Positions 6,847-58,463 of a DNA stretch of 64,000 nucleotides are shown piece after piece (position 1 is the first letter of the stretch; each line of letters begins with the position of its first letter). The notes under the pieces are model-generated. The model searched no databases and was not told where the DNA came from. It saw only the letters and a program-made list of their open reading frames with translations. Both the position numbers and the translations under genes were made by a program. Origin of the DNA: Nitrospirota bacterium (lineage in GTDB: Bacteria; Nitrospirota; UBA9217); contig CAVVOB010000014.1 in the NCBI GenBank assembly GCA_963749655.1, forward strand, positions 128,001-192,000, given 5' to 3'.

Positions 6847-7128
6847 TTCCTTTCTGGCAGGGCTGAGAATACATCCTGAGCCGCACCATACTTACTGCCG
6901 CTTCATAACTACCACATATATTGTATCGCTTCGGCAGCCACAGTCAATTGCACTAAAATAGTACCGTTAATGTCTGCTACCCACTTATCACACATGAAAG
7001 GATTATGAAAAGGAGGTGGTGATGGGGATGACACTGCGTGGACGGGGGATAGCTGTTTCAAATGCCCGCTATTGCGCGAACGAAAATAGCTCGGCAGGGG
7101 TTCTCTGCAGTTTTTTTTCGAAAGGAAA

Positions 7129-7846
7129 CTACTTCCCGAGGTACCGGTTGAGCAGATCTTCCGTTCCCCTCTTGAGAAATTTCTCTCCCTCCGACCGGGC
7201 GACCGCTGCCGCGGTCTCCCGTGCCAGGGCTGCGGCAACGGTTTTGGCCACCTCATCAGGCGTTGCGCCGCCGTTCCCGCCGATGTCGTTCAGCTCTATT
7301 CTCGGGAGATCAAGCATAAGCGGCTTGTCTCCCAGTGCCGCGATGCGGGCCTCTATGTGGCCCTTTTCGATCACGAGCCGTTTGATGGAAAGCCGCGTCT
7401 CTTTGCTTTTCGTTTTCTTCGCGGCATCCCGTCGCGGCTCCTTTGCCTGGAGGTTGGCCTTGAGCGCGTCGACGTTGGACGTCTTCGCCTGCGTTATTTC
7501 GTAGAAGACCTCGGGACCGGCGACGCGGATTTCCCGGATAACGATCGGAGATTTCGTGACGGATTTCACGGCGATCTTCGTCGAGAATCTCTCCCAGGCT
7601 GAATATATGCGGGGCTGAAAAGCCGGGTGGATTCGCAACGGTCAATCCTTTGATCGATGCCTCGCCGGACGAGAGCCGGATGCTCACGGAGGAAACGCGC
7701 ACCGCAGTCTTCACTGCCTGGGACCCGTACTTTTCGATGGCGCTTTTTACGATAAAGTCCAGGTTCGTAAGAACGTAGATGATCGAGCCGGTGATTACGA
7801 GCAGCACGACTGCCGCGACGATCAGAAAAGGTCTGCCCTTTTTCAT
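7129..7846 (-). CDS. AsmA-like membrane-anchored protein (frameshift ~7590)
   Basis: N-terminal TM, then NLD..VK.AIEKYGS...V.V.SV.I....GE..I.GL.V.NP.GFS; continues in ORF 7129-7638 (IVIREIRV.GP.VFYE...I.L.DIG). Confidence 0.7.
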
Positions 7847-7926
7847 AGTCCACTCCCTGTGTTTGCTTTTATTGTACCATGAATCCGGCACACGGAAACA
7901 ACAGGGACTGCGAAGGCACGGGGTGT

Positions 7927-8664
7927 TCACGGTCTTGTTTTCTCGAGCTTTCGCGCAGCGGCGGCGGTGTGCGAGGATTCCACGACCATCATCTTTCCGT
8001 CAAACCGTGCTGCGGCGCGGAACTCGGCCTCAGCCTCGTGGGGCTTATTCAGCGCGAGGAAGACTTTGCCGAGGTTGTAATGCGCTTCCGCGAAGCCGGG
8101 CAGGAGCCTGAGCGCTGCTTCGTATTCCTGCCTGCTTTTCTCGAGCGAGCCCTGCATGAAGAAAAGGTTCCCGAGATTGTTCCTGCATGCTGCCTCCGCC
8201 GGTCGGTTCCTGTTCGTCCGCGCGTCGTCGATCTGTATCCGGAGCGCTACCTCGAAATTGTGAAACGCATCCGCGTAACCGGGCCGCAGGGCGAGAGCCG
8301 CCCGGTACTCCGGGGCCGCTTCCGCGGCCCTGCTGAGCCTGAGGAGCGCATTGCCGATATTTTAGTGGGTGACCGGATCCAGGGGATCGAGCAGTGCCGC
8401 GGCGCGGTACTCTCCGAGCGCCTTTCCGCTTCGCCGCTGATCGGAATATAACCTGCCGAGGTTGTAGTGGGGCCGCGCCTTTGCCGGGCTTTTCGCAGCG
8501 GCATCCTCCCAAAGCAGGATTGTCGAGTAATAGGCGGAGTTTCTCGCAAGAGACGCTGCTCCGAGGGCAAGCAGAATAACGACCGCGGCTGCGGCCTGAA
8601 CGATGGCGATCGGGACCGCGAATTTCGTACGCTGCGGCGGATTTGCTTTTTTCATGACTGGCAT
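7927..8664 (-). CDS. Membrane-anchored TPR protein, paralogue of 10255-10857 (several frameshifts)
   Basis: ARN..Y....LWEDA..KSP.KARPHYNLG plus TPRs, split over ORFs 8362-8664 and 7927-8157. Confidence 0.75.
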
Positions 8665-20870: not shown

Positions 20871-21206
20871 TTATATGCAGCCCGTCGATTTGGGAAGGCC
20901 GGCGATCTTGCACGCCTGTTTGGCCGGACCGCAGGGATAGAGCTGGTAGAGATATTTGCTGTTGCCCTTTTCGGAGCCGAGCTTATGTCCGATTTCCTTG
21001 GCCAGGATCTTGACCTGCGGAGCGACGCTATACTGCCTGTAATAGTCGCGAAGGAAATTCACGACCTCCCAGTGATGTTCGGTCATCTGGATTCCCTCGA
21101 TCGCTGCTATATAGTTGGCCACATCAATGTTCCATTCGGCGGGATTTGACAGGTAACCGTTCCCATCCAATTCCAGTGTCTTTCCTTTTATTGTAATGAC
21201 TTCCAT
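20871..21206 (-). CDS. DsrC/TusE family sulfur-relay protein with both C-terminal cysteines
   Basis: LDG.GYL...W, HWEVV.FLR.YY, LY.LYP.GPAKQAC-KIAGLPKSTG-CI (C-x10-C). Confidence 0.9.
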   Translation of the reverse strand: MEVITIKGKTLELDGNGYLSNPAEWNIDVANYIAAIEGIQMTEHHWEVVNFLRDYYRQYSVAPQVKILAKEIGHKLGSEKGNSKYLYQLYPCGPAKQACKIAGLPKSTGCI

Positions 21207-21442: not shown

Positions 21443-23635
<2,193 letters not shown>

Positions 23636-23639
<4 letters not shown>

Positions 23640-29151: not shown

Positions 29152-30195
29152 CTATGCGCCGAAGGTGTATTTCGTTCCGGCTGTATTGAGGGTGAACGCT
29201 TCGGGCATTTCCTTGCTGAATGCCACGAGCGATTCGAACCCGGTGCAGTGCGCCGGCATAAGGTGCTCCGGCTTCATTGCCTTGATGTCGGCTACCGTGC
29301 TCTGGATTCGTTCGGGCTTCGAGTTGATCATATGAAATCCTCCCATGATCGCATGCACCTTTTCCGTTCCGGAAGCCTTCTGTGCCTGCCTGACCGTATT
29401 CACGATGCCGGAATGGGCGCATCCGGATACGACCACCAGTCCTTTTCCTTTCACGTTGAAGAAAAGGGCCTGTTCACCGCGGAAATCGTCCTGTTCGGGT
29501 TTATCGCCGCGCTTTACCTGATTGGATGGCGGGATCTTTTCGTAGGACGTGTGGCGTTCGATGTTCCCGGTAAAGAACGCGCCCGGAATGATCTGAGTGG
29601 GATTCTTCACTTCAATCACTTTGAGACCGAGGGACTCGATGTCGGACCTCTGGAGTTGTCCCAAGTCGGCCGCTTCGGTTGTCCCGGGGCGGAGCGAATA
29701 TCTGCGAAGAAACGCCTCTTCTCCCACGTAGAACGGGGTCCCCGCCGGGATCCGGGACTGGTTCTGCTTCAGGATATTGACCATGCCCATAAAATGATCA
29801 TAATGTCCATGACTCAAGCTGAACGCAGCCGCCTTGCCGATGTCGATCCCCAAAAGGGCCATGTTATTCAAGACGCCGGCGGCATCGAGCCCGTAGTCGA
29901 ACATACAGGCGCTTGTCTTGCCGTCCACCACAGTCTCGACATAATAGGACAGGCCATGCTCGGCATGGATCGACTTTCCGGGGACGACGCGGTAACGCTT
30001 CCCGTTCTTCCCGTCGACGATGTTGGTATCATAATAATTGTCCGTCAGCACCCAGATCGTCAGCTTGTCCACCTCGGCTGCCTTCATGGATTCATTCGCC
30101 ATCACGCTTTTTATCATGCTCTCTCCCGCAGCCAACAAAACCCCTGTCGCCATGGAATACTTCAGAAAATCCCTTCTGTTCATACGCTCTTTCAT
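29152..30195 (-). CDS. Tat-exported MBL-fold metallo-hydrolase (MJ0448-like subfamily)
   Basis: NRRDFLK Tat motif; AEHGLS, SHGHYDH, SGCAHSG, GGFH, HCTG. Confidence 0.9.
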   Translation of the reverse strand: MKERMNRRDFLKYSMATGVLLAAGESMIKSVMANESMKAAEVDKLTIWVLTDNYYDTNIVDGKNGKRYRVVPGKSIHAEHGLSYYVETVVDGKTSACMFDYGLDAAGVLNNMALLGIDIGKAAAFSLSHGHYDHFMGMVNILKQNQSRIPAGTPFYVGEEAFLRRYSLRPGTTEAADLGQLQRSDIESLGLKVIEVKNPTQIIPGAFFTGNIERHTSYEKIPPSNQVKRGDKPEQDDFRGEQALFFNVKGKGLVVVSGCAHSGIVNTVRQAQKASGTEKVHAIMGGFHMINSKPERIQSTVADIKAMKPEHLMPAHCTGFESLVAFSKEMPEAFTLNTAGTKYTFGA

Positions 30196-30483
30196 GGTCC
30201 GCCTCCCTCTTTCATGAGCATGAAGCTCCCTTCCGACCTATTCCTGCGCGGCTAATTCCGCAGCAGGTTGAATATCAGGATGCACAGCCCGCCGATCGTC
30301 AGTATCATGCCGGTCCAGAACACGACGTACACGAAAACGTTATGAAGCCTGCTGTTAATGGGGCACCTCGGTAAGCCGTCCGGCAGGAGCCGGTGGCTCC
30401 TCGACAATAACAACGCGACTTCTCGCGAATTAAGACGCATTCCGCACCCGGCACGAGCCGGGGCATGCCGGGTCGCGGGACAG

Positions 30484-30892
30484 CTATTCGTTCTGCTTCC
30501 CGGTAGATGTTGTTTGTCTCTTCTGCGGAGTCAGCCACGCGAAAACAGCGGCGGCAATGAGCAATACCGGCACATCGCCGAACAGATGCCCGCGGTGCTC
30601 CGGGTATACGAACGCCTGGATTGCCATGATCCCTCCATGCACGATGCTTGACCAGACCGTGAACCAGATCAGGCTGAGGTGTTCGACGGGATGCTTGGCC
30701 GCAATGATCAGGAACACGCCGAGCGTCGCGTAGATCCCGGATTATCATCTGCAGATAGAGCGAATGGCCCTGCGCATGCCACGCCCATCCCGAAGGCCAC
30801 AGGATCGTAAGGGGATAAACGCCGACGACGCAAAATGCTCCGACCGATACCAATGCAATTTTCAAGTACCTGAGTTGTGCTGACGTTTCCAT
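30484..30892 (-). CDS. DUF6632-like membrane protein (frameshift ~30740)
   Basis: YPL...WPSGW.WH...Y..MI.GIYATLGVFL..A...P..HLSLIWFTVWSS.VH..IMA.QA...H.GHL.GDV across two frames. Confidence 0.75.
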
Positions 30893-30908: not shown

Positions 30909-31477
30909 TTAATGCGAGGTTTCGGGCATTGGACAATAGGCCCCCTCAGACAAACCCGCCGGACCGCAACGAAATGCCCGGTTGAACCTCCCGCGGAAAT
31001 TTGCCTGGGCTATCTCAGTGGTCAGCTCGACGAACTGTGCGTCCGTAAAATGCTTTCGCAGATCGGCGATCAATTCATCACTGACTTCCGGGGGAGTGCG
31101 TGTCATGGCAACGGCAAGATCGAGCACTACCTTTTCAACAGGACCGAATACGCTGCTTTCCCGATAGTTCGTGAGGTTCATCAGCTCCTCTTCCGCGACT
31201 CCGCTTGCCCTGCCCTCGGCAGAGCCTGAATCGATTCAGGCGCGGCAGCGATCAGCATCGCGGTCTTGATGTCGGCCAGCCTTCTGAAGCGGAGAGGGAC
31301 AAGATGCGATCGATCGAGCAGCAGTTCGAAAATGCCCCGTCCCAGGTGGAGCCGGGGAACATGCGCCAGGATCCGCCAGGACTCGGGAACACGCCCCAAC
31401 CTCCGCCGCACGGCAGCGAAAAGCACCCTGCTGACGAGTGAAGCATTTTCTTTCGCGACTCCCTTAATGTATGACAT
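30909..31477 (-). CDS. AhpD/carboxymuconolactone decarboxylase-like protein with predicted selenocysteine (CxxU); one-base deletion ~31249
   Basis: Restoring one G gives KTAMLIG-C-R-A-TGA-IDSGSAEGRASGVAEEELMNLTNYRES, joining ORFs 31181-31621 and 30909-31181 into one CMD-like protein. Confidence 0.75.
31207..31225 (-). promoter_or_regulatory. Candidate bacterial SECIS hairpin
   Basis: GCTCTGCC-GAG-GGCAGGGC stem-loop starting 11 nt after the in-frame TGA (31238-31236); G-initiated apical loop. Confidence 0.6.
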
Positions 31478-31645
31478 CGGATCGTCTCCCTGCAGGACTA
31501 CACGTCCGCCGTAAGTCAGGATCACGCCGATCCGGAGCCGGATGAAACCAGTTGCGCTGAGGGTCCTGTTATGAATTGGGCACCTCCGCCGTTTTTTCAC
31601 CGCGCACAGAGCAGCGGCCATTTCCCTTCACCCTGCGCGCATTGC

Positions 31646-31831
31646 CTATTTCTGCCTTGCCGATGACTCTGCAAACCGGTCCATGCCGTGCGGGGCCATG
31701 AGGTTTTCGGTCTGCCAGGCTTTCAGCCTCACGAGGCATTCCCTCATCTCACGCTCCTCATTTTCATCATCTCTGGCGCTTTTTTGGTGAACCTTCCGGT
31801 GGAGTCTCTCTGGAATCATTATTTTCATCAT
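31646..31831 (-). CDS. Small hypothetical protein (60 aa), first gene after a putative sigma-54 promoter
   Basis: Strong GGAGGA RBS immediately upstream of the ATG. Confidence 0.5.
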   Translation of the reverse strand: MMKIMIPERLHRKVHQKSARDDENEEREMRECLVRLKAWQTENLMAPHGMDRFAESSARQK

Positions 31832-31883
31832 GCTATCCTCCCTTCTTTTGATGGATCATGCTACGTTCTCTGCTGCTTTCTAT

Positions 31884-31900
31884 TTCAAGTACGATGCCAG
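31884..31900 (-). promoter_or_regulatory. Putative sigma-54 promoter
   Basis: CTGGCATCGTACTTGAA: GG-N10-GA, a variant of the -24/-12 consensus. Confidence 0.55.
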
Positions 31901-31985
31901 TTCGCGGTTCGGGAGAAATGACGGGTATTTCAACAGAGTAGGGAATTATCGAAGCGGTAGTGCCTTTGGACCGTCTTTAAAAAGA

Positions 31986-32206
31986 TGTAAATGAGGTTTA
32001 CAGAAAGAGGCAGGAGAGGGGGAATGCGTTTAATTCCAGTCTGTATTCAAGCGTTCTTCTTGTCATACCGGACTCGATCAGGTATCCGGAATGTTTTGAA
32101 AAAACTGGATTCCGGTCTTCGCTGAAATGACGGTCAGTATTGTATTGACGATGACAATTGGGCGCTGGTTGCAGGAAGGGGCAACAGTGCAAACAATGTT
32201 TACACT
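31986..32206. promoter_or_regulatory. Two palindromic enhancer-like sites (TG[T/C]AAA-N5-TTTACA)
   Basis: TGTAAATGAGGTTTACA at 31986-32002 and AGTGCAAACAATGTTTACACT at 32186-32206. Confidence 0.5.
32062..32131. repeat. GTCAT...ATGAC palindromic intergenic repeat
   Basis: GTCATACCGGACTCGATCAGGTATCC...TGGATTCCGG..CGCTGAAATGAC, a REP/RPE-like element. Confidence 0.6.
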
Positions 32207-32322
32207 TGGCCGCGGGTGTTTACCTTTTTGTGCCGTCATGCTTGAGAGGATGAAATTCACGAGCGCTGAGACAATATAGCCGCAGCAAGAAGAAAAATGA
32301 AGAAGGGAAAGAGTATGCAGCG

Positions 32323-34711: not shown

Positions 34712-36276
34712 TTATGAGGATTTCGGCTGCTCGCCTGTTTGCATCGGCACCGCATCCGCTTTATCGCTCGGCACCGCAAGAGGAATTTTTACCGTAAATG
34801 TCGTGCCCCTGCCGTACTCGCTCGTGACCCCGATCTCTCCACCCATCATCTCGCAGAATTGCCTGGTGATCGCCAGACCCAGCCCGGTCCCCCCGTACTT
34901 TCTCGCGGTCTGAATGTCCGCCTGCGAGAACGGCTGGAACAGCTTTGCCATCTGCTCCCCGGTCATGCCGATACCCGTATCGCTCACGATGAGAGCTAAC
35001 CGTTCGGAGCCCTCCGACTTCTCCCGGGAGGCGTCCAGCAGCAATCGCTCCCTTCTCCGTGAACTTACATGCATTGCTGAGCAGGTTGAACAATATCTGC
35101 CGGACCTTCGTGATGTCAGCGTACATGGAGCCCAGGTCGTCCCGCATGGTTGATCGTGAGCAGATTCGCATTCCTGTCGATCAGGGGCTGGACCATGCTC
35201 GCCACCTCCTCGATCAGTCCGGCGATGTCAAAGGTCTCGGGCGAGAGCTCGATCTTTCCCGCTTCGATCTTGGAAAGGTCAAGGATGTCGTTGATGAGCG
35301 CAAGGAGATGCTTGCCCGAGGCCCGGATCTTCTGGAGGTCGGGAACAAAATTTTTCTGATCACGGTCCACGGCCTCCTCGGTCAGCATCTCGCTGTAGCC
35401 GATGATGGCATTCAAGGGCGTGCGCAGTTCGTGGCTCATGCTGGCCAGGAAATCGGACTTGTGGCGGCTCCCGGCTTCGATCTGCTGATACAGACTGCGG
35501 AGCTCATTGTTCATGCGGTTCAGGTTGTCCGCCAGGGTCCCGAGCTCGTCGCGGTTCGGCACCTCGACCCGCTTCGAGAAATCCCCCGATGCGATCTGCT
35601 TCAGCTGCGTGTTCATGAGGGTGACGGGGCCCATTAGGGAGGAAGAAACGGCATAGCCGAGCAGGATCGCCAGCCCGATGCTTCCCGCGGCAAAACCGAT
35701 GACCACCCAGCGTGAGGTCATGTACGCCTTGTTGCTTTCGTCCACCTTTGCTTCCATGTCCGCCTCGGCCCGGTTCACCATCTCGTTGGTGAGCCGTTCG
35801 AGGCTGTCCGCAAGCGGGGCTGTCCGCGTGCGCAGTTCCTTTGCCTCGGTGAAATTCCGCTGACGGGTCAGCTCCAGGACCCTGACGATCAGCTGGTTCA
35901 ACCGTTCATGTTCCGCGTTGATCTTCCTGAAAAGCTCCGCCTCATTCTTGGTCACGAACTGGAGCCGTTCCAGGTCGTACCGGTACTCATTCAGCTGACG
36001 AAGGGCGCTTTCGAGCATCCGCTCCTCCGGCGACAGCAGCGCGGAGGTGACGCTGTAGAGCTGGGAAGTGGTGTCATGCTGCAGCTGCCGGAACGCGGCG
36101 ACCTTGCGGCGGAGCTGGCTCAAGTCCTCGGAGCGGCGGTTCATGCCGCTCAGGACCTGAATGACGACAACGCCGAAAATGATCAGCAGGCCCACGATGG
36201 CAAAAAAGGCGCCGATCAGCTTGGTATGGACCGTGAACGGAGCCTTGGCCACGAGCCGGGGCAGCCAGTCCTTCAT
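34712..36276 (-). CDS. HAMP-domain sensor histidine kinase (frameshifts ~35140 and ~35040)
   Basis: Two TMs around a helical periplasmic domain, HAMP (DELG.LA...N.M), SHELRTPLNAIIG, NLLSNA.KFT, DTGIG, GGTGLGL. Confidence 0.9.
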
Positions 36277-39781: not shown

Positions 39782-41265
39782 TCACGCTTTCGGCTTCGGC
39801 TCCCTGGCCCTGTCCTTCCCGCCCCGTCTCCTCCGCCTTTTTCTTCCCGGTTTGAAGCGCTTCTCCTGGCCCTTCTGCACTTCTTTTTCCTCAGCCGGCG
39901 CAAGCGGATGGGTCTTGATGAATTCCTTCCACCAGGCGCGCAGCTCCCTGTTTTCGTCCGTGGCCTCGCTCGTGAAACGAAGATACTCATAGGCGTCTTC
40001 GAAGCCGGGACGCCTCAGGAAGTAGCGGGGGTGCTTGCCTTCGCGCTTCGCGAACCGGTGCTGGTTCCAGTACATGTCGCGCATCGCAAGCCCGATCTTC
40101 TTGGGGATCATTACGCGCCGGGCCTGTTCCGTCATGGCTTCGCTGACCGCCCTGGTCACGGCATCAAGTGCCGCTGTGCCGCCCTTTTCCTGCAGCTCCG
40201 TTGCCCTCTCTTCCAGATACTGGCCGTAAAGGAGGCCGAAGAGGATATGAGGCGGAACCGTCCGCCCCGCCTGTATGTAGGTATCCACCCATTCAAGCGC
40301 CTTCCCGATCCAGGTGTGCGGGAAGCCGCCGTTCTCCGTGTCCACCCACGCATTCAGGCCCGGGAAGATCACGCCGAAGAGCCCGGTCTTCCTGAGCAGC
40401 TGGTAGGTCTTCTCGCCTTCTCCGAGCAGAAAGAGCTTGAGCACCTCTTCGTACATCCGCGCCGGAGAGGCAAGGGCCACCTTGTCCTTCAATTCCAGCA
40501 TCGCATGCCACGTATCTTTTTCGATCTCGAACCCGAGCATGGCGGCAAAACGCACGGCGCGGACCATCCTGACCGGGTCCTCGGTGAACCTGACGACGGG
40601 ATCGCCGATGGTGCGGATGAGGCCCTTCCGGAGGTCTTCCATGCCGCCCACGTAGTCAATGACCGAAAAGTCCGCGATGCTGTAGAAAAGGGCGTTGACG
40701 GTGAAATCGCGACGCAGGGCGTCCTCTTCGGGCGTGCCGAAAACGTTGTCGCTCAGGATCATGCCCTCTTCGGTCTTGAGCATGCGCGGCAAACGGGGCC
40801 GCCCCTTGGCTGATAGGGGGGAGATGCCGGTGCCTCTTCCCCGCCTGCAGAGGGCGCAGAAGGATCCGCGATGTCTACGACCAAAGGTTCGGCCGGCGTT
40901 GGTGCGGGCTGCTGCTCCGGCGGGGCCGCTTCCGCAACTTCCGGCGCCTCCGGCGCATTGGACCGGAACGTGGCGACTTCGATGATCTCGTTGTCGAAAT
41001 GAATGTGGGCCAGGCGGAACCGCCTGCCGATGAGGCGGCAGTTGCGGAAGATCTTCTTGATCTCGTTGGGCTTCGCATCCGTGGCGATGTCGAAATCCTT
41101 GGGTTCCCGGCCGAGCAGAAGGTCGCGTACGCCGCCGCCTACAAGGTAGGCATAGTGGCCCTTCTCTTTCAGCCGGTAGAGGACGCGCACTGCATTGGGG
41201 CTGATCCACTTGCGGGAAATGCTGTGCTCGGAACGGGAAATGATCGTGGGCTGTATCGGTGTCAC
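39782..41265 (-). CDS. pcnB: Poly(A) polymerase I (frameshift ~40800)
   Basis: VGGGVRD, KDFDIAT, PAP signature [32 protein letters not shown], basic tail. Confidence 0.92.
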
Positions 41266-41539
41266 GGGATGATATTAACACATCTTGAAAGGAAAGGCAA
41301 AGAGACAGCATTTTTCGCGCAGGGACGCAGAGGCGCGGGAAAAACCGTCCATCGATGGACACCAGTTGACCGTACTTCTTTTTCTTTTGCCGGTTCAGGC
41401 TTGTAGCCTGAACCATGGATTAAGGTTTTGGTTCAATCTGCAAGATTGAACCAGCGCGAACTGCAAAAGATCTCGCCCTTCGGCCGAGATGACGGTGTTC
41501 TTATATTGGTACCCGGCAACCTACCTTCACCGGTTTTTC

Positions 41540-52325: not shown

Positions 52326-52709
52326 TTACAACAGCGATAGAACCGTCAACACTATCACGGCTAAAGCAAAGCCGAACCCGATGACGGCTGCTGTCTTGCG
52401 ATTCCGGAGCTCGGTGGCTTTCCCTCTGTCCAGGAACGGCGCAAGAAGCAGAACGCTGAAAGCGAACCCCGGCAGCACAACAGCGCCCACGAAGGTCCAC
52501 CGGCCGGGAAAATACTTCGTCAGCTGATAGAGGAACAGAAAATACCACTCAGGCCGGGGGCTGTATTGCGCTGAAAAATCGATCTCCCTGCCGACGGCAG
52601 GCGGAAACAGCGTGGCCAGGATCAGGACCGCCTCGACCGTGAACAGCGCGACAACGGTGATCTCAAAGAAATAATAGGGGAAGAATTTTATTTCGTTCTT
52701 TTTTTCCAT
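52326..52709 (-). CDS. Cytochrome b6 subunit IV-like (PetD/QcrC without cytochrome c domain)
   Basis: FFP..., PRPEWYFL, PFLDR; three TMs; no CxxCH. Confidence 0.88.
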   Translation of the reverse strand: MEKKNEIKFFPYYFFEITVVALFTVEAVLILATLFPPAVGREIDFSAQYSPRPEWYFLFLYQLTKYFPGRWTFVGAVVLPGFAFSVLLLAPFLDRGKATELRNRKTAAVIGFGFALAVIVLTVLSLL

Positions 52710-52854
52710 CAGGCTGCCGCAATCCTGTCTCAAGTTTCGAGTTTCAGATTTCAAGTTTCAAGCGGAATTCGCGATTGCACTCCGGCCCCTTGCTACCGGC
52801 TACTGGACCCTTGCCTTATTAATTCCACATTCCGCATTCCGAATTCCGCAATTT

Positions 52855-53499
52855 CTACATTCCCCCTGAGATCCCGATCCTTCTTAATATATGGAAATGC
52901 ACCCACAGAAAAAGGGCGGTAAGGAGCGGGAACCACAGCATATGCATGCTGTAGAACCTCAGGAGCGTATGCCCCGATACTTCGGCGCCCCCGCGGACGA
53001 AGGACGACAGAACGGGGCCGATCACAGGAAGCGATCCAAGCATGTTCGTTCCCACCACCGTGGCCCAGTACGCCTTCTGGTCCCAGGGCAGGAGATAGCC
53101 GGTGAACCCGAACGCGAGCGTCATGACGAACAGCAGCGCCCCGGCCACCCAGTTCAGCTCACGGGGGTTCTTGTAGGAGCCGGTGATGAACACCCTCATC
53201 ATATGAAGGATCACCATCACGACCATGAGGTTCGCCGCCCAGTGGTGCACGGAACGGAGCAGCCGGCCGAGCGGCACCGTCTGCTGCAGCTGCTGGATGC
53301 TGCGGTAGGCGTCGGCCTCCGATGGGATGTAATGCACGGACAGGAGCAGTCCGGTCAGGACCTGCATCAGAAACAGCGTGAACGTGATGCCGCCGAAACA
53401 GGTGAAATAATTGATCCAGCCGGGCACGGGCTTGTCCATGATGCGGCGGTGCCTGCTGGTAAAACCCAGGCGCGTATTGACATGTTCGATAATCTTCAT
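52855..53499 (-). CDS. petB: Cytochrome b6-type (PetB/QcrB) N-terminal cytochrome b
   Basis: CFGG, Q..TG, RSVHHWAAN..HM.RV, GYLLPWDQ.AYWA, RFY..H..H; 214 aa. Confidence 0.9.
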   Translation of the reverse strand: MKIIEHVNTRLGFTSRHRRIMDKPVPGWINYFTCFGGITFTLFLMQVLTGLLLSVHYIPSEADAYRSIQQLQQTVPLGRLLRSVHHWAANLMVVMVILHMMRVFITGSYKNPRELNWVAGALLFVMTLAFGFTGYLLPWDQKAYWATVVGTNMLGSLPVIGPVLSSFVRGGAEVSGHTLLRFYSMHMLWFPLLTALFLWVHFHILRRIGISGGM

Positions 53500-53611
53500 G
53501 AGATAGCTCGGATCACCGCAAAGGTACCCATTTCAACGCAGACTCCACATCGGCATTTCTTCGCGTCAGAAAAATTCTTTCCTCTCCGGAGAGAATTCGA
53601 CGTTTAAGCGG

Positions 53612-54064
53612 TCAAACTTTTACACCGGCCAGAATCATCCCATCCTGCATTTTAACAGGGAAGCGCGTGAGCGGCGCAGGAGGCGGACCGGCAATATTTT
53701 TGCCGCTCAGATCATAACGGCCGCCATGGCAGGGACAAACGAACTCCCCTTTTTCTCTCTGGTAATTGACAAGACATCCCAAGTGCGAGCAGGTTGCAGA
53801 GAATACGATCGGCCCTGATGGAGAGGAGACGATGAAGACCCGGCTCTTTCGTTCCTTGCCCCCTGCCATAAACACCAGCTCGGCTTTTTTTATGCCCAGC
53901 CGCGGGACATCATCCTCGGCAATGAGGGGAAAGAAAACCAGTTCCTTTTTCCGGTCATGAGCCGGCGAGAACACTTCGATGGCGGGAAGCAGGAAGCCGA
54001 GACCCAGGAACGCAAGCACGGCGGCGATCGCCTTTTTGATGAAATCCCGACGGCCTGTTTCCAT
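53612..54064 (-). CDS. Rieske iron-sulfur subunit (Tat)
   Basis: GRRDF Tat/TM anchor; CSHLGC and CPCHG boxes; GPPPAPL. Confidence 0.93.
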   Translation of the reverse strand: METGRRDFIKKAIAAVLAFLGLGFLLPAIEVFSPAHDRKKELVFFPLIAEDDVPRLGIKKAELVFMAGGKERKSRVFIVSSPSGPIVFSATCSHLGCLVNYQREKGEFVCPCHGGRYDLSGKNIAGPPPAPLTRFPVKMQDGMILAGVKV

Positions 54065-54363
54065 GAGTTTATATACTACGATCAATGAAGCCTGTCAACC
54101 GGGAAAGCGCGGAAGCACGTGTGAAACGGGCTCTCCTGCGGGCATTCAAGCGTGCGCGACTGCCGTCGTCCTTTCGCACGAGGTTGCGCGAAGAGGACCC
54201 CATACGATTTTCTCTCTTTTATGATGTTTATAAAACAGTGAGGCACTTTCTACCCAAGCGGCGGTCTCGTCCGCGGGAAATAGACCCATGAATCCGGACC
54301 TCCCTGCGCAATCCCTGCAGGCCTGACAACGACGGCCGTACAAGCCCATGAAAAAATAATATA

Positions 54364-54392: not shown

Positions 54393-54740
54393 TTTTTTTA
54401 TCATAAACAATACGTCCTAGCCAACAACCCCAATTACTGCCAAATCCGACACACAGAAAATAAGAACCATCGGGAAAAAAACACAGACCGCGGCAAATAG
54501 ACAGGAAGGCGCTATCACCCGAACGAACCGGCAGCCGTCGTTTACGTACCATCTCCAGAATATCTAAAACCACGCAAACCGACGACCCAAGGCACAAACT
54601 CCCCTTACTTTTAGAATGCCATGACCTACAGCGATTGAAGAATCGCCGACTATGCACGAACTCCGGAGTATTATTAAATTACATACCCGCCCTAATCACG
54701 CCCTATCTGCCCGCAGGACTGCGGGCCAAGGAGTATCCAC

Positions 54741-55988
54741 ATGAATTTAGTAGAACTGAAAGGCAAGAAGATCGCCGAGCTTACCGCCATGGCGGACGAA
54801 CTGAAGATCGAAGGCATCAGCGGCCTGCGCAAGCAGGAGCTGATCTTCGCCATACTGCAGGCCCAGACCGAAAAGAACGGCATGATCTTCGGCGAAGGCG
54901 TGCTCGAGATCCTGCCGGACGGATTCGGCTTCCTCCGGGCGCCGGATTACAACTATCTGCCCGGACCGGACGACATCTACGTATCCCCCTCGCAGATACG
55001 GCGGTTCAGCATCCGCACCGGCGACACGGTCTCCGGCCAGATCCGGCCTCCCAAGGAAGGCGAACGCTACTTCGCCCTGCTCAAGGTCGACGCCATCAAC
55101 TACGAGGACCCGGAGATCTCCCGGTCCAAGATCCTCTTCGACAACCTGACCCCCTACTATCCCGAAAAGAAGATCAAGCTCGAACATTCACCGACCGACT
55201 ATACGACCCGCGCCATGGACCTCGTCACCCCATCGGCATGGGCCAGCGCGGTATGATCGTGGCGCCGCCCCGGACCGGCAAGACCATGCTGCTCCAGGCC
55301 ATTGCCAAGGCCATCCTGAAAAACCATAACGACATTAAGCTGATCGTGCTCCTGATCGACGAACGGCCCGAAGAGGTCACGGACTGGGCAGCGTCAGGTC
55401 AAGGCCGAGATCATCAGCTCCACCTTTGACGAGCCGCCGCAACGGCATGTGCAGGTCGCGGACATGGTGAGCGAGCGCGCAAAACGCCTGGTGGAGCACA
55501 AGAAGGACGTGGTGATCCTGCTCGACAGCATCACCCGCCTGGCCCGGGCGCATAACGCCATCATCCCGGCCTCGGGCAAGGTCCTCTCCGGCGGTCTGGA
55601 CGCGAATGCGCTCCAGCGGCCGAAACGGTTCTTCGGCGCAGCCCGCAGCATCGAGAACGGCGGCAGCCTCACCATCCTCGCGACGGCGCTCGTGGACACC
55701 GGCAGCCGCATGGACGACGTGATCTTCGAAGAGTTCAAGGGCACGGGCAACATGGAACTCCACCTCGACCGGAAGCTCGTGGACAAGCGCGTATTCCCGG
55801 CCATCGACATCAACGCCTCGGGCACCCGCAAGGAAGAGCTGCTCGTGGACAAGGACGACCTGAACCGCATGTGGGTGCTCCGGAAGGTACTGAACCCCCT
55901 GTCCACCGTGGAAAGCATGGAGTTCCTGCTCGAGAAGCTGAAACAGAACAAGACGAACAGGGATTTCCTGGATTCCATGAACAAGTAG
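54741..55988 (+). CDS. rho: Transcription termination factor Rho (frameshifts ~55230 and ~55390)
   Basis: [61 protein letters not shown]. Confidence 0.97.
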
Positions 55989-56091: not shown

Positions 56092-56290
56092 ATGAAAGAA
56101 GGCATTCATCCCGACTACAAGGTGGCAACAGTAAGCTGCGCCTGCGGGGAAAAGTTCACCACCAAGTCGACGAAAGAGAACGCTCCGGCTCGACATCTGC
56201 TCGGTCTGCCATCCGTTCTTCACCGGCAAACAGAAGCTGATCGATACGGAAGGCCGCGTCGACAAGTTCCGGAAAAAATACGCGAAATAG
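56092..56290 (+). CDS. rpmE: 50S ribosomal protein L31, zinc type (frameshift ~56183)
   Basis: MKEGIHPDY...CACG, then [27 protein letters not shown] in the shifted frame. Confidence 0.93.
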
Positions 56291-56300
56291 CATCGCCACC

Positions 56301-56326
56301 GGCGGCCCTTCGGCCGCCTTTCTTCT
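56301..56326 (+). terminator. Terminator-like hairpin after rpmE
   Basis: GGCGGCC-CTTC-GGCCGCC-TTTCTT. Confidence 0.55.
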
Positions 56327-56355
56327 GGAAGAACAAGCCCCGTGAGGTTTCTGCT

Positions 56356-57268
56356 TTGTCAGAAAAAGTGCAAATAGGCGGCCAGGCGGTTCTCGAAGGC
56401 GTCATGATGCGCTCTCCCCATGCCTATACCGTTGCGGTGCGCAAGGGGGGGAAGCCCGACGCCGAGATCGCCATCTTTCGCCAGACCATCCTGCCCATCG
56501 GGGAGCGCTTTCCGTTCCTGAAGACCAGGATCGTCCGGGGTTCGGCCGCGCTCTTTGAGGCCATGTGGCTCGGCATCCGGGCGCTGAACTTTTCGGCCAA
56601 CGAAGCGCTCGAAAGCGACGAGGACGGGAAAAAAGAGGAGATCGGGCCGCTTGCCATGGCCGGCACCATGATCGTGGCGCTCGCCTTTTCTCTCGGGCTG
56701 TTCCTGGCGCTGCCCGCTCCTGCTCACCAGCCTGCTCGGCGCTCAGTACTGCGGCGGTCAACCGGCACAGCATCCTGTTCAACCTCACCGACGGCGCGTT
56801 CCGCGTGGTCCTGTTTCTGGGATACGTATCCGGCATTTCCTATATGAAGGACATCCGCCGGGTCTTCGAGTATCACGGCGCCGAACACAAGGCCATCGCA
56901 GCCTACGAGGCCGGGGTCGAGCTCACGGTGGAGAACGCCAGGCCCTACTCCCGCATCCATCCGCGCTGCGGCACCAGCTTTCTGCTGACCGTGGTCGCGA
57001 TTTCCATCTTCTTGTTCTCGCTCATCCCGGGCGTCCTGGCCCTTCTGGGCAAAAGCAGCTGTCACGGATCGTGCTGCTTCCCGTGATCGCCGGGCTGGGC
57101 TATGAGTTCATCAAATACAGCGCCAAACAGTGCAACAACCCGCTGATCCGGAAACTGATGCAGCCGGGCCTCTGGCTGCAGCGCCTCACGACGCGGGAAC
57201 CGTCGGATGACCAGATAGAAGTGGCCATCACGGCGATGCGTGAAGCCCTCGCCATGGAACCCCGCTAA
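56356..57268 (+). CDS. DUF1385/YqhQ family membrane protein (frameshifts)
   Basis: [41 protein letters not shown]. Confidence 0.9.
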
Positions 57269-57391: not shown

Positions 57392-58463
57392 ATGCTAAGA
57401 AAACTCGAAGCTGTTGCAGAAAAATACGATGAGCTGACCAGGCTCCTGTCCGACCCGGGCGTTGCTGCCAACCACCAGCAGTACCAGAAGTATTCCCGGG
57501 AGCGGTCGGAGATTGAAGACGTGGTGAACCACTACCGCGCCTACAAGGACCTGGAAAAACAGATCGAGCGAAGCCGGAGGAGATCACCAACGACAAGCAG
57601 TCCGATCCCGAACTGCGCGCCATGGCCGAAGCCGAGCTCAAGGAGCTTTCGGCCGAAAATCGCGCAGATGGAGCAGGAGCTGCGGCTCATGCTGGTGCCC
57701 AAGGACCCGCGCGACGACCAGAACGTCTTTCTCGAGATCCGCGCAGGCGCAGGCGGCGACGAGGCCGGCCTCTTTGCCGCGGAGCTCTTCCGCATGTACT
57801 CGCGCTACTCGGAAAAGAAGCGCTGGAAGCTGACGCTCCTCGATATGAGCACCACGGGCGTGGGCGGGGCAAAGGAAGTGATCGCCCAGATCCAGGGCAA
57901 GGGCGTCTTCAGCAGGCTCAAGTACGAAAGCGGCGTTCACCGGGTGCAGCGCGTGCCGACAACGGAAGCCAGCGGCAGGATCCACACCTCGACGGTGACC
58001 GTGGCGGTGCTGCCCGAGGTCGACGACGTGGACGTGAAGATCGAGCAGAAGGACCTGCGCATCGACACCTACTGTTCCTCGGGCCCCGGCGGCCAGTGCG
58101 TGAACACGACCTACTCCGCGGTCCGCATCACGCACATCCCGACGGGCGAGGTCGTCGCGTTCCAGGACGAGCGCTCGCAGCTCAAGAACCGCGAAAAGGC
58201 CATGAAGATCCTCAAATCGCGTCTGCTCGAAAAAGAGCGCGAAAAGCGGGATGCCGAGACCGCCCAGCGGACCGCAAGTCGCAGGTCGGCACCGGCGACC
58301 GCAGCGAAAAGATCAGGACCTACAATTTTCCGCAGAGCCGCGTGACCGATCACCGCGTCGGAGTTTCACTCTACCGGATCGATGCCGTCATGGACGGCGA
58401 TATCGACGAGTTCATCGACGCCCTCACTTCGGCGACAATGCGGAACGGCTGAAAAACCTGTAA
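57392..58463 (+). CDS. prfA: Peptide chain release factor 1 (several frameshifts)
   Basis: [20 protein letters not shown] (PxT RF1 motif), [19 protein letters not shown]; upstream of prmC. Confidence 0.95.

Follow-up and report, generated by a model that had tools for sequence, protein, structure and literature searches.

The locus at 31477–30909 on the minus strand of the window (the whole stretch of DNA analysed here, 64 kb in length) raises the question of whether a coding region that carries both a change of frame and an in-frame TGA is a dead gene or a selenoprotein gene that has escaped annotation. ORF calling with translation table 11 splits the region into two pieces, 31181–31621(−) and 30909–31181(−), the same division that the preliminary description of this DNA had reported when it proposed that a Sec-dependent oxidoreductase, missed by standard annotation, lies hidden there. 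That proposal is supported by a column occupied by Sec or Cys among the homologues, by a conserved hairpin and by the homology of both halves to one protein. We consider it quite likely that the region is a single gene encoding a selenoprotein of the AhpD/CMD fold, with the motif Cys-Arg-Ala-Sec, in which the TGA stands for Sec and the gap between the two frames is most likely an indel error.

Gene layout and reading frames

The whole gene comprises about 189 codons, and all its features lie on the minus strand. The start ATG (31477–31475) is preceded, 7 nt upstream, by a Shine-Dalgarno-like GGGAGA (31490–31485) that can be read off the sequence. The N-terminal coding part, frame A (31477–31250), extends from Met1 to Ile76 and translates as MSYIKGV...IKTAMLI, i.e. 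MSYIKGVAKENASLV...RRLADIKTAMLI, beyond which this frame gives nonsense. The C-terminal coding part, frame B (31235–30909; IDSGSAEGR...CPMPETSH), lies one base out of register with respect to frame A and terminates at a TAA (30911–30909). With the codons that precede it, frame B reads R-C-R-A-[TGA]-IDSGSAEGRASGV...PETSH*, also written [TGA]-IDSGSAEGRASGVAEEELMNLTNYRESSVFGPVEK...AYCPMPETSH-TAA, and it contains a single TGA between 31463 and 30909. This in-frame TGA (31238–31236), predicted from the homologue column to be a selenocysteine codon, completes the CxxU redox motif TGC CGC GCC TGA (C-R-A-U, 31247–31236), whose aligned counterpart is CxxC in 72 loci and CxxU in seven. The minus-strand string quoted in the preliminary description is present in the sequence. 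The transition from frame A to frame B takes one extra base between ATC (31252–31250) and TGC (31247–31245), at a break site (31249–31248) where two bases, G and C, stand in place of the three-base Gly codon, GGC or GGG, of the orthologues. A perfect 14-nt palindrome, CTGAATCGATTCAG (31239–31226), includes the Sec-TGA, and in the closest genomic orthologue this string differs by a single change.

Homology of the two halves

Frame B, used as the query of a protein search, retrieved 23 database relatives. To the closest full-length one, P0002 (187 aa), frame A aligns over residues 1–76 and beyond at 54% identity, collinear through residue 76 (E = 2e-31), while frame B matches residues 78–186 of the same protein at 73% identity (E = 3e-59). 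Since each half is homologous to one full-length protein, the two parts belong to one gene, as had been proposed. The closest genomic orthologue, L001, comes from an uncultured Nitrospiraceae MAG and is 77% identical over 108 columns; frame A is collinear with its codons 1–76. When each half is compared with L001 in its own frame, dN/dS is 0.22 for the frame A half and 0.13 for the frame B half, and as judged by these ratios both gene halves are under purifying selection. At the level of homology, the region 31477–30909 is thus one gene in two frames.

The TGA column among homologues

A scan of genome contigs yielded 80 loci, one of which (L016) ends before the TGA column, leaving 79 that are informative. 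The column is occupied by TGC in 71 loci, TGT in one and TGA in seven, so that the alignment with homologues called for in the preliminary description finds both Cys and TGA there, and the TGA does fall on the second Cys position of CxxC. All seven TGA loci are open from Met via the TGA to the stop, and the two halves in the window are open in their own frames. Two marks of a selenoprotein gene, a Sec/Cys pair at the UGA column and a UGA kept in orthologues that are open on both sides, are therefore found here. The Sec-type subgroup occurs in five phyla: Nitrospirota (L001, Nitrospiraceae, motif CASU), Chloroflexota (L002, Anaerolineales, CPAU), Myxococcota (L020, Myxococcales, and L022, 'Deltaproteobacteria', both CPFU), Binatota (L035 and L037, Binatia, both CPFU) and Acidobacteriota (L046, Acidobacteria, CPFU). 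L035 and L037 are two Sec-type paralogues located on different contigs of the same Binatia MAG. A quick ML tree, built on 80 rows, places the eight Sec-type rows in one group (SH-aLRT 94), inside which a long-branched Cys row, L080, is nested; the Cys-type rows belong mostly to Actinomycetota.

The database relatives bear the traces of the same codon. Sixteen of the 23 are N-terminally truncated predictions (15 of 101–107 aa and one of 162 aa), and 13 of these begin at V/M-G-R right after the TGA column, a pattern that an upstream in-frame stop would be expected to produce. In two relatives, P0002 and P0004, the Sec column is filled by W. Near the motif, the P0004 sequence is otherwise identical to the translation of L002 (GCPA-W-LDAASAVGREEG versus GCPA-U-LDAASAVGREEG), and the L002 DNA has TGA at this place, so that the W in both proteins most likely reflects the gene caller's choice of code. 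With 16 relatives truncated and two bearing W, the family appears to be routinely mis-annotated.

These two W residues are what would favour a TGA that, by readthrough or under a reassigned code, specifies a standard amino acid, for instance Trp, instead of Sec. The column is, however, Cys and not Trp in 72 loci, the W of P0004 is explained as above, and TGA serves as a stop in the window, where it terminates 12 of the 44 Pfam-supported ORFs. This ordinary use of TGA as a terminator rules out a reassigned genetic code, and we regard insertion of Trp or another standard residue as extremely improbable.

The hairpin downstream of the TGA

A SECIS-like hairpin (31225–31207) follows the TGA. It consists of 8 bp, starting with the pair g31225–c31207, and a GAG loop (31217–31215); its conserved 17-nt core (31224–31208) comprises 7 bp and the GAG loop, and the eighth pair, 31225/31207, is present in the window. 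The preliminary description, which had placed an 8-bp stem with a G-initiated loop 11 nt after the TGA, was right about the stem and the loop and needs a correction of the spacing: a spacer of 10 nt precedes the 8-bp stem, whose first base is the 11th nucleotide, and it is the conserved 7-bp core that is preceded by an 11-nt spacer. The published bSECIS model, as excerpted from PMC13188914, lists a loop of 3–9 nt with a G within the opening two positions, a stem of 4–16 bp, a distance of 16–37 nt from the UGA to the loop and an MFE of at most −7.5 kcal/mol. With a 3-nt GAG loop, an 8-bp stem, 18 nt from the UGA to the loop and about −12.5 kcal/mol, the window hairpin lies within all four of these listed constraints; its loop has the required G, without the commoner G[G/U] start.

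The 17-nt hairpin, CUCUGCC-GNN-GGCAGRG, is found at the same site, within the codons S-A-x-G-R, in all eight Sec-type genes (the window gene and the seven orthologues), which bears out the earlier claim of a SECIS-like element just 3′ of the TGA; in the window it sits within the codons G-S-A-E-G-R. The stem has one mismatch in L001 and one in L035, the latter because Cys replaces Ser in the hairpin codons. When applied to the eight Sec-type genes, RNAalifold predicts these seven pairs by itself, and 92.2% of the cells are paired, compared with 36–50% after the 3′ arm has been shifted by 1–3 columns. Covariation is absent from the hairpin among the eight genes, no pair being changed on both sides and five of the eight pairs being invariant, and the RNA-level argument therefore rests on codon choice. 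The Arg codon in the hairpin is AGR in 7/7 Sec-type orthologues (the window is left out of these counts), as opposed to 0/53 Arg codons of Cys-type loci, which are CGN in 53/53. Similarly, the Ser codon is TCT in 5/5 Sec-type loci versus 4/69 Ser codons of Cys-type loci, and the codon at U+8 is GGC in 7/7 versus 2/72. The window uses the Sec-type codons at all three positions. The 30 nt that contain the UGA and the hairpin form the best-conserved 30-nt block between the window and L001, with 28/30 identical positions compared with 17–25 in the other blocks.

Taken alone, the hairpin does not exceed chance expectation, because shuffled sequences, other TGAs of the window and Cys-type genes give similar structures. 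Folding of the 54-nt segment that begins with the TGA gives −19.9 kcal/mol (z = −2.15), a value reached by 6 of 200 shuffles. Of the 2117 TGA trinucleotides of the window, 144 precede some perfectly paired hairpin (7 bp or more) that obeys the SECIS rules, and about 17 of the 2117 reach the −12.5 kcal/mol of the target or lower. A generic SECIS-hairpin criterion selects 5/7 Sec loci and 11/72 Cys loci, which makes it too weak as a discriminator. Over the 36-nt stretch after the column, the mean MFE is −14.3 kcal/mol for the Sec type versus −11.5 kcal/mol for the Cys type, and 28 of the 72 Cys loci reach the stability of the weakest Sec locus. The weight is carried by the conservation of the hairpin in all Sec-type orthologues. 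A search against Rfam gave no family at the gathering score in the whole window, and around the gene just noise at E values up to 10.

These data also bear on the reading of the TGA as an ordinary stop, or as a Cys codon turned into a stop by mutation, which would make the region a truncated, dead CMD gene followed by a coincidental hairpin. Hairpins of similar quality do occur by chance behind roughly 1–7% of TGAs, and the use of TGA as a terminator in the window would suit such a reading. It is hard to reconcile, however, with a TGA at the same column in seven orthologues from five phyla, all open on both sides, with the same hairpin and its Sec-specific codon choice in every one of them, and with purifying selection on the sequence past the TGA. 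We judge an ordinary stop to be very improbable.

In the preferred reading, the TGA at 31238–31236 would be decoded as selenocysteine, SelB with its Sec-tRNA(Sec) being recruited through putative binding to the 17-nt stem-loop that lies 11 nt past the UGA, inside the coding sequence. The use of Sec is plausible for this host, since Sec machinery is noted in Nitrospirae, with selC embedded in or overlapping selB, in the excerpted text of PMC13188914; from the sequence features described here we infer actual Sec insertion in the source organism. A same-frame TGA-bridging scan of the window returned 110 raw, unscreened candidates, and the Pfam scans of the window revealed no typical selenoprotein families.

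Frameshifts in the window and the one-base gap

The DNA alignment with L001 (332 columns, 85% identity) contains one 1-nt gap in the window sequence. It is located at 31249/31248, between ATC (Ile76) and TGC, where L001 has GGG and the window keeps the G and C of the Gly codon. Gly precedes the first Cys (Gly-Cys) in all seven Sec-type orthologues, and the missing base is hence consistent with a G. One base added at ATC GC, as suggested earlier, thus restores the frame exactly where the alignment is one base short.

The earlier remark that indels break many genes of the window holds as well. Pfam scans, which covered all ORFs of at least 90 aa, detected domains split between frames in a DUF748 gene (6909–8664), priA (21443–23639), a histidine kinase gene (34712–36276), a poly(A) polymerase/CCA-type gene (39782–41416), rpmE plus DUF1385 (56092–57086) and prfA (57392–58452), and a rho domain in three pieces (54635–55988). 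A DUF6632 membrane protein gene (30305–30892, minus strand) is likewise frameshifted, with profile positions 5–49 in one frame and 57–127 in another (30484–30717). This gene begins 16 nt past the selenoprotein gene, and tblastn of its two pieces against L001 gave no match at E 1e-5, despite synteny with L001 on both sides. Relative to L001, five frame changes occur within about 8 kb of synteny, two in the kinase gene, two in the sigma-54 regulator gene and one in the selenoprotein gene. The window has the look of a long-read assembly that is rich in indels and probably not polished.

In such a setting, the gap has to be weighed against true pseudogenization, in which the lineage would have had a functional AhpD-like selenoprotein gene and a real 1-nt deletion would have inactivated the copy of the source organism. 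The given sequence is indeed one base short relative to L001, and no Sec machinery is seen within the 64-kb window, where Pfam domains of selA, selB and selD and tRNA genes were searched for and none was found. Against decay, the normally indispensable rho, prfA, priA and rpmE are frameshifted in the same window, the frame changes accumulate along the segment syntenic with L001, and the selenoprotein gene has no other lesions, its halves remaining open in their own frames with the dN/dS values of 0.22 and 0.13. This combination argues for a sequence error rather than decay of the gene. Since these housekeeping genes and others of the window are also broken, an assembly indel is the likeliest cause of the break, and the gap at 31249/31248 most likely arose in base calling or assembly and not as a real lesion; a pseudogene is unlikely.

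Protein family and predicted fold

The frame B piece scores 13.3 bits with the Pfam CMD profile (PF02627), for which the cut-off is 23, and the frame A piece gave nothing with Pfam or NCBIfam at E values up to 1. Because the window pieces score weakly, the classification was taken from the orthologues. Among the full-length relatives, L001 (31.8 bits), P0002 (23.6), P0006 (29.5) and P0012 (34.1) exceed the Pfam CMD cut-off, and P0024 has no Pfam CMD match. The best NCBIfam match is NF053654, with 70.7 bits for the frame B piece (E = 1.3e-19) and 100.6 bits for L001, both under the equivalog cut-off of 310; residues 1–169 of L001 align to positions 1–169 of the 179 of this profile. With TIGR01926, whose cut-off is 81.8 bits, the window piece scores 22.3 and L001 scores 37.8.

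When the family profile was compared with the PDB, Atu0492 (2gmy, E = 5.9e-18), PA0269 and the debrominase Bmp8 were retrieved with their CxxC motifs aligned. The AF2 model of the orthologue L001 has a pLDDT of 90, and Foldseek superimposes it on Bmp8 (6ohi), 2prr and 6k40 with TM scores of 0.82–0.84; the modelled orthologue displays an all-helical AhpD-like fold with the CxxC motif at a helix start. The Pfam scores of the orthologues, CMD by this measure, and their predicted AhpD-like fold support the assignment of the gene to the AhpD/CMD-like family that had been put forward from the sequence.

The family motif is C-x-x-[C/U]-x-D-x-G-S, and a nearly invariant extra Cys lies near the C-terminus. 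The His of the CxxCxxxH motif is part of the AhpD active site (Mycobacterium tuberculosis type). AhpD sensu stricto has this His four residues past the second Cys, and a Gly stands there in the present family; the Foldseek comparison with 1knc gave E = 0.68 and a TM score of 0.50. In the proposed chemistry, an oxidised substrate would be reduced at the expense of the selenol and the adjacent Cys thiol, which would become joined in a selenenylsulfide and then be returned to the reduced state. Candidate substrates are peroxides, partners of the peroxiredoxin type, disulfides and possibly halogenated compounds.

The gene and its relatives might form a distinct, undescribed subfamily of AhpD-fold selenoproteins, whose chemistry might not be peroxide reduction, a minority view that we would still entertain. 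Such a subfamily would be characterized by Sec members in five phyla and Cys members mainly in Actinomycetota, the absence of the CxxCxxxH His, the nearly invariant C-terminal Cys and a minimal 17-nt SECIS fused to the S-A-x-G-R codons. Reductive dehalogenation of the Bmp8 type, or the handling of sulfur or selenium compounds, are possibilities for its chemistry.

Gene neighbourhood and host

Among the Sec loci, only L001 shares neighbours with the window, with identities of 87% for a sigma-54 regulator, 71% for a TAT-signal protein, 71% for a kinase, 90% for a receiver and 64% for a lipocalin-like protein. The other Sec loci have unrelated neighbours, namely a Na/H exchanger, an ammonium transporter, PFOR, an outer-membrane barrel and MttB, and the gene neighbourhood of the Sec loci provided no functional clue. 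The TAT-signal protein, 347 aa long (29152–30195, minus strand), contains RRDFLK as its twin-arginine signal and HGHYDH as an HxHxDH-like motif; it has no Pfam domain at E 1e-3 besides the TAT signal, and in L001 it is encoded beside the selenoprotein gene. The spacer between the sigma-54 regulator gene and the selenoprotein gene (31478–32322) measures about 845 nt, versus about 130 nt in L001. Elsewhere in the window, a DsrC-like gene (20871–21206, minus strand), a YeeE/YedE-type 'sulphur transport' gene (PF04143; 45485–46597, minus strand) and Rieske and cytochrome b genes (52326–54085) together indicate a sulfur-metabolising Nitrospirota organism.

Comparison with known systems

The gene is doubly hidden, by its Sec-UGA and by a probable assembly indel, and with its recognition a Nitrospirota genome gains an AhpD-like selenoprotein. 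The compact conserved SECIS candidate, a 17-nt stem-loop with an 11-nt spacer, could serve as a search pattern. General knowledge of selenoproteins is unchanged by the gene.

The kind is not new, reports of AhpD-like CxxU selenoproteins going back to 2005. According to the extracts of the papers used here, AhpD-like (COG2128/YciW) and CMD-domain CxxU selenoproteins were reported by Zhang and Gladyshev in the Sargasso Sea study of 2005 (PMC1088965) and the GOS study of 2008 (PMC2398784), the latter listing 299 'AhpD-like 1' and 70 'AhpD-like 2' genes, and such selenoproteins also appear in recent reviews and a database paper (PMC9312934, PMC13188914, PMC13326102); the existence of CxxU variants, invoked in the preliminary description, is thereby documented. 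As these extracts describe them, the Zhang and Gladyshev families share with the present gene the AhpD/CMD fold, the Sec in second position of CxxU, homologues with CxxC, a bacterial SECIS that closely follows the UGA on its 3′ side and genes routinely truncated by annotation. The difference is that those families are assigned to COG2128/TIGR01926 or PF02627, whereas TIGR01926 is missed here, a separation made by profile scores and not by the published sequences. The closest named counterpart, the NCBIfam family NF053654 'YciW-related (seleno)protein' (GroundWater_YciW), is annotated as a (seleno)protein family and represents the same kind of protein, to which L001 aligns end to end; unlike its members, the present proteins score far below 310 bits, which points to a sister family and not to membership.

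The hairpin resembles the SECIS of the E. coli fdhF type, whose minimal form is, in the excerpt of PMC8659212, a stem-loop of 17 nt at a distance of 11 nt from the UGA. The family hairpin has the same size and spacing (nt 15–31 counted from the U) and a G that opens the apical loop, followed by U to give GU in 6/8 family members. It differs from the element so described in that it is devoid of a bulged U in the 5′ arm, its loop is limited to 3 nt, GAG replaces GU in the loop of the window and of L001, and no lower stem is conserved.

The solved CMD/AhpD-like structures, Atu0492 (2gmy), PA0269 (2o4d, 2ijc, 7xw1), Bmp8 (6ohi), 2prr and 6k40, match the family profile with E values from 5.9e-18 to 1e-10 at 15–29% identity. 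They carry Cys where the Sec-type members of the family carry Sec, and in 2gmy and PA0269 a His lies four residues past the second Cys, at the position of the Gly in the family studied here, which is further set apart from these structures by its C-terminal Cys. In light of these comparisons, the gene is an AhpD-like selenoprotein of an already known sort, in a subgroup that falls under all the specific NCBIfam cut-offs tested.
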